Source of the DNA: Deltaproteobacteria bacterium
GTDB lineage: Bacteria; Desulfobacterota; GWC2-55-46; UBA9637
Length of the DNA stretch: 42,754 nt
Direction of reading: 5' to 3'
Assembly: GCA_016200645.1 (NCBI GenBank)
Contig: JACQEJ010000084.1
Span: forward strand, 1 to 42,754
Position 1 is the first letter of the stretch, and every line of letters begins with the position of its first letter. Below are positions 19,230 through 29,866 of this stretch, in pieces. The translations under genes and the position numbers were made by a program. A model generated the notes under the pieces. It made no database searches. It saw only the letters and a program-made list of their open reading frames with translations, and was not told the DNA's origin.

Positions 19230-19315
19230 AAATACAGGCTATGGGCAATGGGCTATAGGCTATGGGGTTTTCTCCTATTGCCTATTGCCTATCGCCTATC
19301 GCCTATAGCCTGTTT
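19230..19315. repeat. Heptamer inverted array, family B, empty copy
   Basis: Same 37-bp arm; the other arm supplies the tig stop codon. Confidence 0.95.
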
Positions 19316-20571
19316 TTTATTATAAAATCAAAAACCTTTTCTTCCAGCATCCCTGCCATCAGGGCGGCATCAGAACCTTGCTCTACAAACTGCCTCTTCA
19401 GCTCCTCAAACCTCTGATGGCGCTCTGCAGCCATTTCTTTTATTTTAGCATCTATCTCGTTGTCTGAAACAGTTATATTCTCCTGCCTTGCCACAGCATC
19501 CAGTATCATCTCTTCCTTAACCCTCATCTCCGCTATCCCGGAGTATTTCTCTTTTAATTTCTCAGGGGTCATTTCCGCCGCATCCTCCGGCTTAACCCTT
19601 ACCTTTCTCATATCTTCCATTGCCCGGGAAACAAATGATTGCAAATAGCTTGCCACAAGGGAAGGGGGCGTATCAAATGTATTCTTTTCAATAAGGCGCT
19701 CCACTATCTCTTTTTTAAGCCGTTCCTTTTCTGCCGCCTCTTTCTGTTTTATCAGGGCTTCTCGCACCTTATCCTTCAGCTGGGCAAGGTTGTCCAGCTT
19801 CAAATCCTTTGCAAATTCGTCATCCAGGGCAGGCAAAACCCTTTCTTTTACGGCCTTGACCTTTATCTTAAAGAGCGCCTCCTTGCCTGCAAGCCCTTTA
19901 TGCTTATAGTCCTCATGGAATCTTACCTTAACCTCTTTTTCATCGCCTTTACCCGCGCCCACAAGCGCATCCTCAAGGTCAGGGACAAGGGCATTTGTGC
20001 CTATCACCACAGGATATTCAGTCGCCTTTGCATTCTCCACAGGCTTGCCGTCTGAAAATCCCTCAAAATCTATGACAACCAAATCCTTCTCCCGGGCAGG
20101 TCGCTCCACCTCGCTGAAATGGGCATTCCCCTCCCTCAAGAGTTCCATAGCCTTTTCTATCTCATCATCATTAACCGTTGCCGCCTCTTTCTTAAGTTCC
20201 ATGCCAAGATAGCCTTCCACAGTGATGTCCGGCCTCACCTCAACCGTCGCGGTATAGGAAAAGGGCTTGCCATACTCTATTCCTTCCTTCACATCTATCT
20301 TGGGTCTTGCAACCGGAGAGAGATTTTTTTCCCTGACAACCTTTGGATATGAACCCTCAATAATTTTTGAAACAACCTCTCCCAGCGCATAGTCCTTATA
20401 GCGGCTTTCCAATATCGCCTTTGGCGCCTTTCCTTTTCTGAAACCGTCAATGGAAACCGTCGCCCCGAGTTCTCTGTAAACAGCATCCATCTCCGCGTTA
20501 ATATCCTCAGGCGGAATCTCTATAATGAGCCTCTTTTTTACAGGGCTCAAATCTTCGATTGATACCTTCAT
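19303..20571 (-). CDS. tig: Trigger factor
   Basis: GFRKGKAP ribosome-binding loop, FKBP-like domain; position before clpPX. Confidence 0.96.
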   Translation of the reverse strand: MKVSIEDLSPVKKRLIIEIPPEDINAEMDAVYRELGATVSIDGFRKGKAPKAILESRYKDYALGEVVSKIIEGSYPKVVREKNLSPVARPKIDVKEGIEYGKPFSYTATVEVRPDITVEGYLGMELKKEAATVNDDEIEKAMELLREGNAHFSEVERPAREKDLVVIDFEGFSDGKPVENAKATEYPVVIGTNALVPDLEDALVGAGKGDEKEVKVRFHEDYKHKGLAGKEALFKIKVKAVKERVLPALDDEFAKDLKLDNLAQLKDKVREALIKQKEAAEKERLKKEIVERLIEKNTFDTPPSLVASYLQSFVSRAMEDMRKVRVKPEDAAEMTPEKLKEKYSGIAEMRVKEEMILDAVARQENITVSDNEIDAKIKEMAAERHQRFEELKRQFVEQGSDAALMAGMLEEKVFDFIIKNRL

Positions 20572-20585
20572 TGTACCCCCTAAAT

Positions 20586-20640
20586 AAAGTCAAAAGTCAA
20601 AAGTGAAAAGTCAGAAGTAAAAAGCAAAAACTGCAAAACT
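20586..20640. repeat. Heptamer arm, family D (AAAGTCA), downstream of the four-helix gene
   Basis: AAAGTCA AAAGTCA AAAGTGA AAAGTCA GAAGTAA AAAGCAA; inverted relative to 21044-21084. Confidence 0.9.
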
Positions 20641-20653
20641 ATTATTACTAAAG

Positions 20654-21043
20654 TCATAAGCTCTTTTCTAATCTTGAAATAAAGGATGAAAGCATAGCTC
20701 TAACTTCCTGATACCCTTTTTCTATTGCCAGATGAATAGCTCCTTCTATATAACCCAACTCAAAACTCAAAAAAAGCCAATAATCTGTTTCTGTTGCTTC
20801 CCTTCTCTCAATGGTCAAAGAGTTCTGAAAAACCTTGCCCTTGTTTCCGCCATAACCTTCTGCAATATTGCCAGGAATTGCGGTGGAAGATCTTAACAGT
20901 TGTTTCTTTATTATTCTGGCCTCTTCAGTATTCGGAAATTTACTACAAGTTTTAATGACTGCCTTTGCCAATCCATGAGCCCTTTGCCAAACTATCAAAT
21001 CTCTATAATCCCTAATTTTCTTTTGACCACTATTTTTCTCCAT
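20654..21043 (-). CDS. Four-helix-bundle protein (23S rRNA IVP / Avd-like family)
   Basis: YRDLIVWQRA...QLLRSSTAIPGNIAEG...EATETDYWL...LGYI pattern; 129 aa. Confidence 0.9.
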   Translation of the reverse strand: MEKNSGQKKIRDYRDLIVWQRAHGLAKAVIKTCSKFPNTEEARIIKKQLLRSSTAIPGNIAEGYGGNKGKVFQNSLTIERREATETDYWLFLSFELGYIEGAIHLAIEKGYQEVRAMLSSFISRLEKSL

Positions 21044-21084
21044 ACTTTTGGCTTATGACTTTTGACTTCTGACTCCTGACTGTC
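21044..21084. repeat. Heptamer arm, family D (TGACTTT/TGACTTC/TGACTCC), upstream of the four-helix gene
   Basis: Abuts the ATG; starts 6 nt after the tRNA-Leu CCA. Confidence 0.9.
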
Positions 21085-21090
21085 TTATCT

Positions 21091-21173
21091 TGGTGCGAGA
21101 GGGGGGAATCGAACCCCCATGGTTGCCCACCAGATCCTAAGTCTGGCGCGTCTGCCAGTTCCGCCACCCTCGC
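21091..21173 (-). tRNA. tRNA-Leu(TAG)
   Basis: GCGAGGGTGGCGGAACTGG...CTTAGGA...variable arm...GTTCGAT...ACCA. Confidence 0.96.
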
Positions 21174-21176
21174 AAA

Positions 21177-21270
21177 AATACAGGCGATGGGCTATAGGAA
21201 AATATTTTTTGCCTTTTGTTTTGCCTATTGCCTATTGCCTATAACCTGTATTTTATTGCCTATTGCCTGC
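21177..21270. repeat. Heptamer inverted array, family B, degenerate, in the tRNA-Leu leader
   Basis: AATACAGGCGATGGGCTATAGG arm and (TTGCCTA)n arm. Confidence 0.85.
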
Positions 21271-21326
21271 TTTTTAGTGAAATTATTATAGGGGATTTTT
21301 TTACCCGTTGCAACGGAAAATTAAAC

Positions 21327-21361
21327 AAAAAAAAGGGCGGGTTAAAAACCCCGCCCTTTTT
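21327..21361 (-). terminator. Intrinsic terminator of the porin gene (possibly bidirectional)
   Basis: A8-GGGCGGG-loop-CCCGCCC-T5. Confidence 0.8.
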
Positions 21362-21365
21362 AAAA

Positions 21366-21423
21366 CTTCAAGGCTAACGCCTTGAGTTACATACAACTGT
21401 AGCTCAACCCTTTAGGGTTGAGG
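21366..21423. repeat. REP-like pair (GTAA/GTAG + palindrome)
   Basis: Minus-strand GTAACTCAAGGCGTTAGCCTTGA and plus-strand GTAGCTCAACCCTTTAGGGTTGAG; related copy at 39606-39649. Confidence 0.7.
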
Positions 21424-21428
21424 TGTTT

Positions 21429-22859
21429 TTAAAAGTCATACTGAACTTTTGCAAAGTACTCGCTGACTGTATCGCTTGTTGCAGTGGACGGCTTTGGCTT
21501 TACAGAAAGGATGCCGTCTCCTGGCATAAACCATGCCGCCTGGCCAACAAGTGCAAGTTCTTTATAGAGTTTGTAAACAGCGGTCACATCAACCTCTGTG
21601 CCCAGGGTCGCATCCCATTCCGTGCTGTCTTTCTTTGTCTCTGTCTGCTGGAATTGGGCAACAAGGCCGTTCAAGGTCAGATCATCCGTTGCCTTGTAAA
21701 TGCCGTAGAGCTGGGCAAAGGTGATATTGCCGAGGGTGCTGTTGTCAATGCTGTTTGCACTGCTGGTCTTAATGACTGCGCCGCCATTTGAAACATCGCC
21801 GCTGTCAAAGAATATGGCGGGCCGCACGCCAAGCTGAACGCCGTAAGCGCCTGCAACTCCGCTGAATGCAGTGCTGCTTTTATCCGTCTTGTTGTCGCCG
21901 GAACCATAACCAACGGCAACCCCGACAGTAGCAGGGCCAACAGGCATGCTCGCATCAGCGTCAAGGGCATAAGCGGCATAACTAAGGTCAGCGGCAGAAT
22001 CCGTTGACGCCAAACCGCAGGAGCCTGGCTGACATCCCTTGGTCTTTGTGCCGCCCTTATATGCTGCATGAACCTTTAGATTGACAGGCCCAAGCTGTTT
22101 TGCATCCACGCCTACGCCAAGCCACCAGGGGTTGTCTTCTCCCACAGTAGAAGTTACTGTTGATCTGTTTGCGTCATACACTAAATAGGCAGCGCCGGTC
22201 AGGGCGTCTGAAGGCATGAATACGCCCTCTACGATATAGAGGTCGTGGTCAAGGTCGCCCTGTGTTGTTGCACCTGTGTTTTGGCTTGGTGTTGCTCCGG
22301 TAGATGTCTCCGCAAGTTTTACATAACCGGCGGCAATTGCCAGTTGATCGGACGGCTTCATTGCAAATAAAAATGCATCGACCTGAGAAACGACAATCAG
22401 ACCGCCGTCCAGAAGCCCCCAATATACCTTGTCATCAGAGACCCTGAATGACTGGCCTCCATCCGGCGCATCGCCGAATACGGAACGGCCTGCCTTTACC
22501 CGGACAGGACCTGCATTGAATGAGAGATATGCCTGACGCACATTTATTCTGTTGTTCTGGTCAGTACTTGCTGCGCCGCTTCCCCACACATGGCTCCTGT
22601 TTGGCCCGCCTGTATTGCCCATCTCCAACTGCACAAAACCCCTTAACTGGTCTGATGCCTTGCTGTCAACATTGAGACGGAACCTTTGGTCAACCCAGGA
22701 GTTGTTATCTCCTGTCTTGCTATTGTAATCTGCCGCATTGTCCGTGCTGAATGCCCTTACCCTGTATGTGCCGTAGAATGTGGTATCTACTGCCATTGCA
22801 GGCAATACCCATGCGGCTGTTACTACAACCGCAAAAACTGCTGCGAGAATCTTCTTCAT
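21429..22859 (-). CDS. Outer-membrane beta-barrel porin
   Basis: Signal peptide ending AMA, amphipathic beta strands, C-terminal KVQYDF; AGGAGG SD. Confidence 0.85.
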   Translation of the reverse strand: MKKILAAVFAVVVTAAWVLPAMAVDTTFYGTYRVRAFSTDNAADYNSKTGDNNSWVDQRFRLNVDSKASDQLRGFVQLEMGNTGGPNRSHVWGSGAASTDQNNRINVRQAYLSFNAGPVRVKAGRSVFGDAPDGGQSFRVSDDKVYWGLLDGGLIVVSQVDAFLFAMKPSDQLAIAAGYVKLAETSTGATPSQNTGATTQGDLDHDLYIVEGVFMPSDALTGAAYLVYDANRSTVTSTVGEDNPWWLGVGVDAKQLGPVNLKVHAAYKGGTKTKGCQPGSCGLASTDSAADLSYAAYALDADASMPVGPATVGVAVGYGSGDNKTDKSSTAFSGVAGAYGVQLGVRPAIFFDSGDVSNGGAVIKTSSANSIDNSTLGNITFAQLYGIYKATDDLTLNGLVAQFQQTETKKDSTEWDATLGTEVDVTAVYKLYKELALVGQAAWFMPGDGILSVKPKPSTATSDTVSEYFAKVQYDF

Positions 22860-24101: not shown

Positions 24102-24108
24102 AATAAAA

Positions 24109-24252
24109 GGCTATAGGCTATTGGCGATAGGCTATGGCCATGAAATACAGGCTATGGGCAATGGGCTATAGGCTATGGGGTTTTCCTATTTCCTATTGCC
24201 TATCGCCTATTGCCTGCTTTTTGCCTATAGCCTGCCTTTATCGCCTATTGCT
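24109..24252. repeat. Heptamer array, family B, downstream of the four-helix gene
   Basis: Contains the 37-bp arm (24143-24179), a local inverted arm and the gene's stop codon. Confidence 0.95.
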
Positions 24253-24608
24253 CCTTGTCTTACTTTAATTAGTTTTCCAATCATTCTACCTAATTCATCA
24301 CAATACGCTTCAATTTTCTCATAAACTGGTTTTTCTAAATATCCTATTTCATAAGCTATCTGAGTTTGTGTTTTTAATTCAGCAAGAGAACCTTTAGCTA
24401 TATAGAAAAAACGAATAGACTCTTTATCTGTGTCACGTTCATCGCCTTCTGCCAAATTACTGGCAATACTTACCGCACTTCGTCTAATTTGGTCTCTTAA
24501 ACCGAAATCACGGCCAAAAATCCCGTCCCCAGATACTTTATAAATAAGAACAGCAATATCCTTAGCGTTTTGCCAAACTATCAAATCTTTAAAGCCTTTT
24601 TTGCCCAT
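24225..24608 (-). CDS. Four-helix-bundle protein (23S rRNA IVP / Avd-like family)
   Basis: FKDLIVWQ...DFGLRDQIRRSAVSIASNLAEG...IAKGSLAELKTQ...GYL pattern; visibly AT-richer than kdsA and kdsD. Confidence 0.93.
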   Translation of the reverse strand: MGKKGFKDLIVWQNAKDIAVLIYKVSGDGIFGRDFGLRDQIRRSAVSIASNLAEGDERDTDKESIRFFYIAKGSLAELKTQTQIAYEIGYLEKPVYEKIEAYCDELGRMIGKLIKVRQGAIGDKGRL

Positions 24609-24611
24609 AGC

Positions 24612-27185
<2,574 letters not shown>

Positions 27186-28225: not shown

Positions 28226-29791
28226 TTAGTCTAAAAGTTTTTTGACTTTTAGACTCGCAAACTGTTTTACCACCCCTATCTTCAACACCCTTTTTGTCTC
28301 CGGCCCCACTCTGCCATACGCACCCTGCCTTACACCTGCCACCCATATAATTTCATTGCCGGAGAGGATGAGCGGGATTAAACCTCTTTTGCGCCTCGGA
28401 ATCTTCTTTTCTATAAAGAGGTCTTTTATCTTTTTATGGCCGCTCATGCCGAACGGCACAAACCGGTCGCCGGACCTAAAGTTTCGTATGAGCAGGGGCG
28501 CTTTGAGTTTATCGTAATCAAAATAAGCAACCCTTTGAGATTTTAGATTTACCCCCACACCAAAATCTTTGGTGCGGGGGTTTACGATTTCAGATTTACC
28601 CCCACACCAAAATCTTTGGTGCGGGGGTTTACGATTTTGAACTTTTGTCTTAAACTCTGCAATCCTGAGTCCGCAATCCGCAATTACTTCTGTTCTGCCG
28701 TCTATTTCTAATTCCTGCTCAAATATAATGCCTCTGTCTTTCTTCTGACTTCTGACTCCTGGCTTCTGACTTCTTTCCATTGTCACCCTGTCATACTCCC
28801 TGTAAACAGTCAGGCCATGGGGCAGGTTAATTGAAATGTTCGGCGCTTTACCGGACAGCAGTTTTAAAAAATCCTCAACATGGCAACTGTAAAATCCCGC
28901 TGATGAGCCGAGAAGCTCCTCTGCCGCCATAAAAAACATCCTGACTTTGATTGCATCATGCAGACTGTTAAGTTTTTTTACCGAAAGAGCAACGGATGTT
29001 TTTCCTTTGCCCCTTGACCCTTGACCCTTGACCTTTTGCCCGCCCTTCACGCAATTCGTGTAAGCATCTTTTGCCTGACTGCACAGATAATCTTCATCCC
29101 TCGTAAGGATGCGGGAAAGCCTGGCCATGTCGTTTTTAAAGGCCGGGTTATATCCCATCAGCGCAGGCATAAGTTTAAGCCTTATATGGTTGCGAAGATA
29201 TTTGGCGCTTTGATTTGAGCTGTCTTTTACAAACTTTAGTCTTTTAGCTTCAGCGTATTTTTCTATCTCTACTCTGGTTATATCAAGAAGCGGCCTTATG
29301 TATTTTCCCCTTACAGCCGGAATGCCGCATAAACCCCTTAAGCCGGCGCCATTTAAAAATCTCATTACCATCGTCTCGGCCTGGTCATCCCGATTATGGC
29401 CTGTGGCTATTTTCTGCGCCTTATATTTTTTTGCAGTCTCCTCAAAAAATGCGTATCTCGCCTTTCGCGCGACATCCTGAAGAGAATCCCCCCTTTTGAG
29501 AAGCTTGCGGGTATCTACCCTTTTGCAAACACACGGGACGCCGAGCCTTTTTGCAAGGCTCCTTATAAAGGCCTCATCCATGTCGGATTCTTTGCCCCTT
29601 AAAGAGTGATTGATGTGGGCTGCAATGAGGGAAATCTTATATTCCGCTGCAAGCCTTGTAAGGATATGAAGCAGTACAACCGAATCCACACCGCCGGAGA
29701 CAGCGGCCACGACAGTGTCGCCCCTTTTGAGCATCTTGAATTTTTCAATGGTGTTTTTTGCTTTGTCCAGCATAGGGTTTTCAAGTATCAT
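28226..29791 (-). CDS. tilS: tRNA(Ile)-lysidine synthetase with repeat-derived insertions
   Basis: SGGVDS PP-loop, ARKARY, GHNRDDQAET, RPLL, DSSN and RNHIR motifs; C-terminal KKIKDLFIEKKIP domain. Confidence 0.95.
   Translation of the reverse strand: MILENPMLDKAKNTIEKFKMLKRGDTVVAAVSGGVDSVVLLHILTRLAAEYKISLIAAHINHSLRGKESDMDEAFIRSLAKRLGVPCVCKRVDTRKLLKRGDSLQDVARKARYAFFEETAKKYKAQKIATGHNRDDQAETMVMRFLNGAGLRGLCGIPAVRGKYIRPLLDITRVEIEKYAEAKRLKFVKDSSNQSAKYLRNHIRLKLMPALMGYNPAFKNDMARLSRILTRDEDYLCSQAKDAYTNCVKGGQKVKGQGSRGKGKTSVALSVKKLNSLHDAIKVRMFFMAAEELLGSSAGFYSCHVEDFLKLLSGKAPNISINLPHGLTVYREYDRVTMERSQKPGVRSQKKDRGIIFEQELEIDGRTEVIADCGLRIAEFKTKVQNRKPPHQRFWCGGKSEIVNPRTKDFGVGVNLKSQRVAYFDYDKLKAPLLIRNFRSGDRFVPFGMSGHKKIKDLFIEKKIPRRKRGLIPLILSGNEIIWVAGVRQGAYGRVGPETKRVLKIGVVKQFASLKVKKLLD
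28535..28685. repeat. Composite in-frame insert in tilS: heptamer family G plus two nested 27-28 bp palindromes
   Basis: 47-bp tandem unit 28545-28591 / 28592-28637; TCCGCAA units at 28668-28684. Confidence 0.9.
28742..28774. repeat. Heptamer arm, family D, in frame in tilS
   Basis: CTTCTGA CTTCTGA CTCCTGG CTTCTGA; encodes RSQKPGVRSQK. Confidence 0.85.
29004..29041. repeat. Heptamer arm, family E (CCTTGAC), in frame in tilS
   Basis: Encodes GQKVKGQGSRGKG. Confidence 0.85.
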
Positions 29792-29792
29792 G

Positions 29793-29866
29793 GAGTCAAA
29801 GAGTCAGAGGGTCAAAGGGTCAGAGCAAAAACAACAACTTTGACTCTATGACTCTTTGACTCTCTG
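29793..29866. repeat. Octamer inverted array (GRGTCARA / TGACTCTW)
   Basis: Four 8-mers, a loop, and three to four inverted 8-mers filling the lptD-tilS gap. Confidence 0.9.

Follow-up and report, generated by a model that had tools for sequence, protein, structure and literature searches.

The subject of this analysis is an open reading frame (ORF1) encoding a four-helix-bundle protein, together with the two heptamer arrays that bracket it, in a Deltaproteobacteria bacterium (genome G000, assembly GCA_016200645.1). ORF1 lies between tRNA-Leu and tig on contig JACQEJ010000084.1, of which a stretch of 42,754 nt, hereafter the window, was analyzed. ORF1 and its two arms, which are built from one heptamer word (the D word), are likely to form a single insertable cassette within the tRNA-Leu/tig transcription unit, comparable to the ORF-bearing intervening sequences (IVSs) of 23S rRNA. 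The cassette is probably an rRNA-IVS-like element that lives in operons and acts as an RNA stem.

The 5' arm, which starts 9 nt past the 3' end of tRNA-Leu, contains five heptamer units, and the word of the 3' arm is the reverse complement of the 5' arm word (Table 1). A degenerate (TTTGACT)n array lies about 30 nt past the ORF1 stop, and 14 nt separate the end of the array from the ATG of tig. TRF reported period 7 at both 20586-20629 (6.4 copies) and 21044-21081, and the duplex between the two arms was calculated at -56.2 kcal/mol, versus -27.9 for shuffled partners (z -6.5). The original prediction, made from the letters of the window, had AGTCARR units abutting the ATG and (TGACTTT)n following the stop, so that the ORF would be looped out by a stem at the tRNA-Leu-tig junction; the units are indeed present at these places, and the arms form the closing stem in both the minimum free energy (MFE) and the centroid fold of the 519-nt spacer. 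Within 20200-21500, the sole Rfam match at gathering score is the tRNA, and the cassette is placed outside a 23S rRNA gene.

The tRNA-Leu with anticodon tag is located directly 5' of tig in 30 of 30 loci, namely the window and 29 relatives across the class, and the junction is therefore otherwise standard, as had been predicted. No match to ORF1, or to ORF2 of a second cassette in the window, was found in the tRNA-Leu-tig spacer of 27 of the 29 relatives, where the spacers measure 30-369 nt; the 30-nt spacer belongs to a congener and ends in a Shine-Dalgarno sequence. Two other congeners, G003 and G004, whose tig is 75-76% identical to that of the window, possess a different four-helix gene at this junction, which shares 31-32% identity with ORF1 and whose inverted arms are not built from heptamers, while a member of the same family, G009, carries a gene-less GTTGTTG/CAACAAC hairpin there. 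In addition, a groundwater metagenome contig from another study joins position 20574 to 21091 via 173 other letters and is cassette-less, with 25 of 275 aligned tig letters differing. Short contigs in runs X1, X2, and X4 (depths 35, 26.6, and 9.8) connect 20623 with 21046 through nothing but the letters 'ACT'. They could stem from this locus in a form that lacks the cassette or from a D hairpin without a gene at another site, as the 36 letters on one side are too few to place them. Judged from the compared junctions, ORF1 is an insert at tRNA-Leu-tig, gene and arms being jointly absent from the junctions of relatives.

A similar pattern is present at the site of the second cassette. The kdsA-kdsD gap measures 2-121 nt and is without a cassette in the samples of seven of 10 relatives, and in G007 the junction holds a four-helix gene of another clade. 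The closest relative of ORF2 (L067, 74% identical and with the same word) is also found in G007, on another contig than the kdsA-kdsD pair. The cassette of G003 and G004 is also found in G011, where it has the same arm but lies at a different locus. The same site thus takes up different cassettes, while cassettes of one type are found at different sites. The kdsA-kdsD spacer of G006 (L099) contains two small overlapping ORFs that resemble a RelE/ParE-type toxin-antitoxin pair by eye and are without heptamer arms, and this spacer appears, from its sequence, to attract different small selfish modules.

The arm word follows the clade of the protein. Within the class, ORF1 is an orphan (best identity 34%), and its relatives occur in other classes of the phylum, such as L134 (about 72% identical; its ORF contains a stop and lacks the 3' end), L135 (57%), and L136 (68% in the C-terminal half). 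L134, L135, and L136 each have AGTCAGG/AGTCAAA units on the 5' side, abutting the ATG or at most 4 nt from it, or TGACTYC units on the 3' side. More distant relatives, at 44% and 39% identity, have the words AGT[CT]GAA and AGTGAAA, each one letter off, and a relative at 33-34% has GGGATTA. In the same way, the ORF2 relatives L067 and L041 carry AGGC[TAG]AT. Fourfold-degenerate sites of ORF1 agree at only 4 of 19 positions with L134 and at 10 of 20 with L135, and fourfold-site identity in the other word-sharing pairs ranges from 0.10 to 0.50; such sites are near random while the word is shared, and the word has therefore been kept beyond silent-site divergence.

Counts of exact 7-mers shared between arms were too noisy for the comparison (background about 2.3 shared words) and were replaced by consensus-word distance and local alignment. 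Among non-syntenic pairs, consensus words differ by at most one mismatch in 7 of 11 pairs at protein identities of at least 60%, in 3 of 26 at 45-60%, and in 19 of 855 below 45%. In the larger set of 87 cassettes, local alignment of the periodic segments revealed similar arms in 21 of 52, 3 of 129, and 18 of 2713 pairs over the same three ranges. The observed word-clade counts were reached in 0 of 5000 permutations for both measures. An unrelated four-helix protein, L079 (26% identity), shares AAAAGTC exactly, and chance would produce about one case of this kind in 726 pairs. From one subfamily to the next, the two arms change in concert and remain complementary. These sequence comparisons support the view that every subfamily of four-helix-bundle proteins has an arm word of its own.

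Of 96 genomes of the class, 22 contain PF05635, and ORF1 matches are present in 100 of 401 genomes sampled from the phylum; 87 cassettes in all were assembled. At least one periodic arm (period 6-9) is present in 77 of the 87, and both arms are periodic in 35. In the class set, period 7 fitted best for 35 of the 46 upstream arms and for 35 of the 48 downstream ones, with some arms of period 8 or 6, and the pairing of the arms reached z < -3 in 38 of 60 cassettes. Arms are also kept in heptamer-poor genomes such as G002, G028, and G065, in which the sampled 20 kb hold few or no other arrays. The cassettes are co-oriented with the upstream neighbor in 69 of 72 cases, with the downstream neighbor in 65 of 72, and with both in 54 of 61 (p 2e-5, 5e-3, and 2e-5, respectively; baselines in G000 are 0.78 and 0.65). 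The median gaps to the upstream and downstream neighbors are 62 and 73 nt, and the arms therefore fill the intergenic space. Moreover, the sense arm duplex is stabler than the antisense one in 43 of 60 cassettes (Wilcoxon p 5e-4), which fits an RNA stem that tolerates G-U pairs. Taken together, co-orientation, the filling of intergenic space, and the sense-strand bias argue for action in a co-transcript.

Beyond the phylum, a small sample of six named plasmid loci was inspected. Complementary heptamer arms are present in Nostoc sp. ATCC 53789 and Azospirillum lipoferum 4B. The arrays of Gemmatirosa and Nostoc PCC 7120 are one-sided or run in the same orientation, and Calothrix PCC 7716 is without arrays. 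On plasmid pPg_01 of Pseudanabaena galeata (L168), the four-helix gene is located between cas6 and cas4, and its arms are direct, not inverted, with AAAGCTA repeated about 14 times upstream and AAAGCCA about 12 times downstream. The link with tandem arrays is therefore broad, while the inverted arrangement is not universal. ORF1-clade cassettes from other classes (L134, L137, L138, and L139) were also seen inside CRISPR-like arrays with direct repeats of about 37 nt (...CTTGATGAATAAAGGATTG[AC]GAC) at a spacing of 72-83 nt. In L138, one cassette fills a 'spacer' slot of about 530 nt and a second starts past the next repeat, and each of the cassettes in these arrays is preceded by a small GC hairpin (GGCGACCTTCGGTCGG-type).

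The following course of events can be proposed. The cassette would be co-transcribed with its host genes, and its arms would pair in the RNA into a stem of about 30 bp. By analogy with rRNA IVSs, the host RNase III, whose gene is present in this genome (TIGR02191, 251 bits), may cut the arm stem. Such cleavage would allow the insert to be tolerated in operons, rRNA, or CRISPR arrays and would release the cassette RNA. More speculatively, the ring-forming protein might bind its own heptamer word, either for autoregulation or for copying of the unit.

Several observations weigh against this reading. The fold energy of the 519-nt spacer is no better than that of shuffles (z -1.75), the arm pairing alone being significant, and for ORF1 itself the antisense arm duplex is slightly stabler than the sense one (-58.7 versus -56.2 kcal/mol). 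Across the survey, arm pairing is weak (z > -2) in 17 of 60 cassettes, strand-biased C-to-T mutation (deamination) could also yield the asymmetry between sense and antisense, and clearly complementary arms occur in only two of the six plasmid loci, three having same-orientation or one-sided arrays and one having none. Furthermore, heptamer arrays are abundant in this genome, a 2.0-Mb assembly that is 94% complete: 983 period-7 arrays were counted among 2145 TRF rows (990 after merging overlapping period-7/-14/-21/-28 rows), so that bracketing is not special to four-helix genes. Only three of 28 non-overlapping strong complementary array pairs with a 250-700-nt loop enclose a four-helix gene, and eight other enclosed ORFs that were scanned matched Ribosomal_S7, 2Fe-2S_thioredx, MoaC, NifU_N, EIIA-man, cNMP_binding, HEPN, and Robl_LC7. 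In flank-to-flank pairing, ORF1 itself is only 91st of 1826 crude genes.

These numbers would be expected if heptamer hairpins, as slippage-prone repeats or terminator- or stabilizer-like structures, filled most intergenic regions of the lineage and ORF1 merely lay between two of them. Such a coincidence would also agree with the lack of a four-helix gene in most array families: greedy grouping at a maximum of one mismatch gave 58 families, of which 55 are without a resident gene, including AACTTGC (96 arrays), ACAGTAG (64), AAAATTT (58), and AAGGGGC (54), and solo arrays in 20-kb samples match the cassette words of their own genome only with a weak enrichment (25 of 83 versus 16.5 expected from the words of other genomes). 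We nevertheless consider this explanation very unlikely, and it is already strained. In flank pairing, all three PF05635 genes of the genome are among the best 5% (7th, 25th, and 91st), and the gene-in-heptamer-stem arrangement is therefore enriched for this family; heptamer bracketing in this genome is enriched for four-helix genes yet not diagnostic, and the bond between arms and gene therefore needs evidence from elsewhere. That evidence is provided by the relatives of ORF1 in other classes, which share its word at near-saturated synonymous divergence, by the agreement of word and clade, by the arms in heptamer-poor genomes, and by the joint lack of gene and arms at the junctions of relatives. 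Alternatively, the arms might be the terminal inverted repeats of a non-autonomous transposon, similar to a miniature inverted-repeat transposable element, with its transposase elsewhere, the four-helix gene as cargo, and the RNA stem incidental. Inverted ends are typical of transposons, and the idea has been raised in the IVS literature; presence, absence, and swapping at two junctions, as well as the same cassette with its arms at different loci (L084 versus L006/L007, and L067 versus ORF2), would suit it. However, the ends are variable tandem arrays rather than fixed termini, and neither the 96% sense co-orientation with the upstream gene nor the sense-strand G-U bias is predicted by such an element. 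No transposase was linked to the 87 cassettes in their ORF flanks, although no search aimed at transposases was made, and a target duplication is not definable because the empty sites are too diverged. Overall, a DNA-level mobile element seems an improbable account of the cassette.

A partnership resembling that of repetitive extragenic palindromic (REP) sequences and REP-associated tyrosine transposases (RAYTs) would give the protein the leading part: each four-helix protein would recognize its own word and maintain or spread the arrays, and ORF1 would be responsible for the D arrays of pyrG and tilS and for those at about 80 further sites. In favor of it, the repeat whose inverted copies flank the gene is also scattered over the whole genome (88 D-like arrays, 73 by the strict pattern), the words with a resident gene rank 1st (159 arrays), 2nd (146), and 5th (58) of the 58 families, and array density, with cassettes masked, rises with PF05635 copy number over 35 genome samples (Spearman rho 0.66), the median being 2.9 arrays per 10 kb in 16 genomes with a PF05635 gene and 0.0 in 19 without. 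Relatives of the protein are ring pentamers, and one of them, Avd, binds structured RNA in solved complexes of diversity-generating retroelements (DGRs). Against it, the density correlation is carried mainly by two low-GC families and is not significant at the family level (rho 0.44, n 8, p 0.27), and in G002, which possesses a four-helix gene, 0 arrays were counted in 20 kb. Families that lack a resident gene account for 63% of the arrays, and resident words do not form more homogeneous arrays than orphan words do (82-91% versus 88% matches). If arms were drawn in proportion to abundance, ranks of 1, 2, and 5 would arise about 15% of the time, and the protein is without a known catalytic domain. 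Some of the orphan words serve as arm words of cassettes in sister genomes, as ACAGTAG does in G009. We regard this partnership as doubtful. Equally doubtful is the broader proposal that PF05635 rings are sequence-specific readers of their own heptamer word and that cassettes are the source or keepers of the excess heptamer repeats of bacteria, of the short tandemly repeated repetitive (STRR) type; if it were true, a clade-specific code between protein and word would let cassettes mark, process, or copy RNAs or DNAs that contain their own word, including pyrG and tilS.

The expectation of one paralogue per repeat family, which had been part of the original prediction, holds in one direction only. 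Each subfamily has its own word, as illustrated by L134-L136 with the word of ORF1 and L067/L041 with that of ORF2, and each paralogue in this genome has a word, but only three of the 58 families have a paralogue.

The remaining features of the window are listed in Table 1. The D pattern occurs 14 times in the window versus 0.15 expected, and the predicted recurrence of D units in pyrG and tilS was confirmed in both genes, where the arrays are in frame. Genome-wide, AGTCARR is on the coding strand in 50 of the 53 D arrays located within genes; this was rejected as evidence of an RNA function, because the antisense unit meets TGA in every frame cycle. The upstream arm of ORF2 (24609-24634) encodes the last residues of kdsA, QAMGNRR, and its stop, and heptamer arrays thus supply host coding sequence both at the kdsA end and in the CTP synthase tail. 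A 47-nt unit with an internal palindrome (CCCCCACACCAAAATCTTTGGTGCGGGGG) is also present in frame in tilS at 28539-28637, in 2.1 tandem copies of 98% identity, and its sequence suggests a small hairpin element that was inserted. The interval 29793-29863, between tilS and the following gene, contains a hairpin that encloses no gene and is made from an 8-base version of the D word, with GAGTCAAA units opposite TGACTCTA units. Upstream of the tRNA, the promoter-like site is, from its sequence, a candidate start of the tRNA-Leu/ORF1/tig transcript. A B-type array of TTGCCTA units (plus strand) at 21203-21276 is located between this site and tRNA-Leu and would fall in the tRNA leader if the promoter call is right.

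Table 1. Coordinates in the window of the ORF1 cassette, its neighbors, and related heptamer features.
Feature	Position	Strand	Description
5' arm	21044..21084	-	AGTCAGG AGTCAGA AGTCAAA AGTCATA AGCCAAA + AGT, abutting the ORF1 ATG
ORF1	20654..21043	-	129 aa, PF05635/TIGR02436 four-helix-bundle protein, intact
3' arm	20586..20640	-	about 7 degenerate TTTGACT-type units; sense ...CTTCTGA CTTTTCA CTTTTGA CTTTTGA CTTT
tRNA-Leu (anticodon tag)	21091..21173	-	ARAGORN; Rfam tRNA, 55.7 bits
tig (trigger factor)	19303..20571	-	TIGR00115, E 7.8e-120; downstream host gene, same strand as the cassette
Promoter-like site TTGCAA-17-TATAAT	21285..21313	-	10/12 consensus match (consensus scan), upstream of tRNA-Leu
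Terminator-like hairpin	21330-21361	-	ends the porin gene, precedes the promoter-like site
Solo D array, AGTCAGG/AGTCAGA x5	25459-25493	-	in frame, 13-residue C-terminal tail of CTP synthase (pyrG), beyond the end of the PyrG profile
Solo D array	28744-28771	-	in frame in tilS, linker between N- and C-terminal domains (...ERSQKPGVRSQKK...)
Second cassette	24108..24634	-	ORF2 24225-24608, 127 aa, PF05635; arms AGGCTAT/AGGCAAT/AGGCGAT; between kdsA and kdsD

The protein encoded by ORF1 matches PF05635 (E 2.1e-27, 95.8 bits, cut-off 33.8), its only Pfam match, and TIGR02436 (E 1.5e-27, 95.9 bits, cut-off 24). According to a previous study, the family has the conserved motif GxxRxxxSxxxNxxE (PMC3936711); in ORF1 it reads KKQLLRSSTAIPGNIAEG, and in our alignment (A1) Q48, R51, N59, and E85 are invariant, with S55 and E62 nearly so. 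The AlphaFold2 (AF2) model (pLDDT 92) has helices at residues 17-33, 40-66, 70-95, and 101-128, and it resembles XCC0516 (2GSC; TM 0.83/0.91), BT_0352 (2RLD; TM 0.76/0.90), and Avd (4DWL; TM 0.74/0.87). XCC0516 and BT_0352 are the best matches of ORF1 in both sequence and fold, Avd being the next structural match. There are five chains in each of the entries 2GSC and 2RLD, and XCC0516 forms a toroidal homopentamer according to PMC4990558. By analogy with the pentamers of these relatives, the ORF1 protein may form a ring.

Three genes of this genome score above the PF05635 cut-off, each with a different arm word: AGTCARR for ORF1, AGGC[TAG]AT for ORF2, and AGCTCAT for the C109 protein. ORF1 and ORF2 are 26% identical and both belong to PF05635, and ORF2 has AGGCTAT/AGGCAAT arms, in agreement with the earlier description of ORF1 as a divergent paralogue of 24225-24608 that is paired with a different heptamer. 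A weak fourth PF05635-like match (28 bits, below the cut-off) was seen at G000:C80:5745-5951 (L004) inside a longer ORF of 190 aa, and it has no periodic arms.

To our knowledge, no function has been assigned in the very large family PF05635 except to the DGR protein Avd, although structures of members have been solved, and we know of no explanation for the heptamer repeats that have been noted in bacteria since the 1980s-2000s. The ORF1 locus and its 86 relatives suggest that the design of the rRNA IVS, a gene in the loop of a tandem-heptamer stem, is a general packaging that is also used in operons, beside tRNAs, and inside CRISPR-like arrays. The repeat word is a heritable, clade-specific part of the unit, kept beyond neutral divergence. 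The two old puzzles would then merge into one testable question, namely whether the ring binds its own word and RNase III frees the unit. For annotation, the consequence would be that PF05635 cassette genes are to be regarded as inserts and not as members of the surrounding operons or cas loci.

Parts of this picture have been reported separately. A previous study listed 18 23S_rRNA_IVP genes in cas loci (PMC3936711), and intervening-sequence-protein (IVP) ORFs were reported in rRNA inserts of candidate phyla radiation (CPR) bacteria. No general description of a heptamer-armed PF05635 cassette was found in the literature searched, which did not extend to subscription journals and supplements.

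The closest known system is the 23S rRNA IVS of Coxiella and Leptospira. According to PMC4990558, the IVS of Coxiella burnetii (23S helix 45) is 428 nt long and contains an S23p ORF, described as decaying, in a stem-loop with tandem GACAGAT heptamers in variable number 5' of the ORF; RNase III cuts the stem at the first repeat, and the Shine-Dalgarno sequence is poor. The ORF1 cassette shares with it a PF05635 ORF that is looped out by a stem of complementary ends, a similar size (about 500 nt including both arms), heptamers directly 5' of the ORF (AGTCARR here, GACAGAT in Coxiella), a poor or absent Shine-Dalgarno sequence, and a heptamer copy number that varies between strains. Unlike the rRNA insert, the ORF1 cassette lies between a tRNA and a protein gene and the ORF2 cassette between two protein genes; both arms here are heptamer arrays, the word differs by subfamily, and the ORF is intact. 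Coxiella is the one case studied by experiment, and cleavage by RNase III is only predicted for the present cassette.

Among relatives of the protein, Avd (4DWL; RT-Avd-RNA complexes 8UBB/8UBE) has the same four-helix-bundle fold and belongs to the same Pfam superfamily, and its ring binds structured RNA together with its reverse transcriptase. However, Avd is only 12% identical to ORF1, and no template or variable repeat is present near ORF1. The Avd model NF033474 does not match ORF1 and gives ORF2 28.9 bits versus a cut-off of 80, and no RVT_1 reverse transcriptase was matched in this 94%-complete genome; a DGR accessory role for ORF1 is therefore unlikely. XCC0516 and BT_0352 are structural-genomics proteins, with neither a function nor a nucleic-acid partner described for either.

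In REP/RAYT systems (REPINs), a single-copy gene is flanked by an inverted short repeat that is scattered genome-wide, and clades of the gene are paired to families of the repeat; RAYTs are HUH/Y1 (IS200/IS605-type) nucleases, and REP repeats are palindromic 20-40-mers. ORF1 is similarly flanked by inverted copies of a dispersed repeat with clade-specific words. In contrast, it encodes a small helical bundle without a known catalytic site that matches PF05635 only, the repeats are tandem heptamers, and most repeat families are gene-less.

Finally, heptamer tandem repeats have been described in several bacteria, such as the cyanobacterial STRR, GGGAATC of Xanthomonas, and TAACTGA of Beggiatoaceae (PMC4692102 and PMC4679880). 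The terms 'intervening sequence', 'four helix', and 'S23' have 0 occurrences each in these two papers. The repeats described there resemble the present arrays in being short intergenic 7-base arrays, often in convergent, hairpin-capable pairs, with a length that varies between relatives, whereas the arrays described here bracket a specific gene family with clade-specific words.

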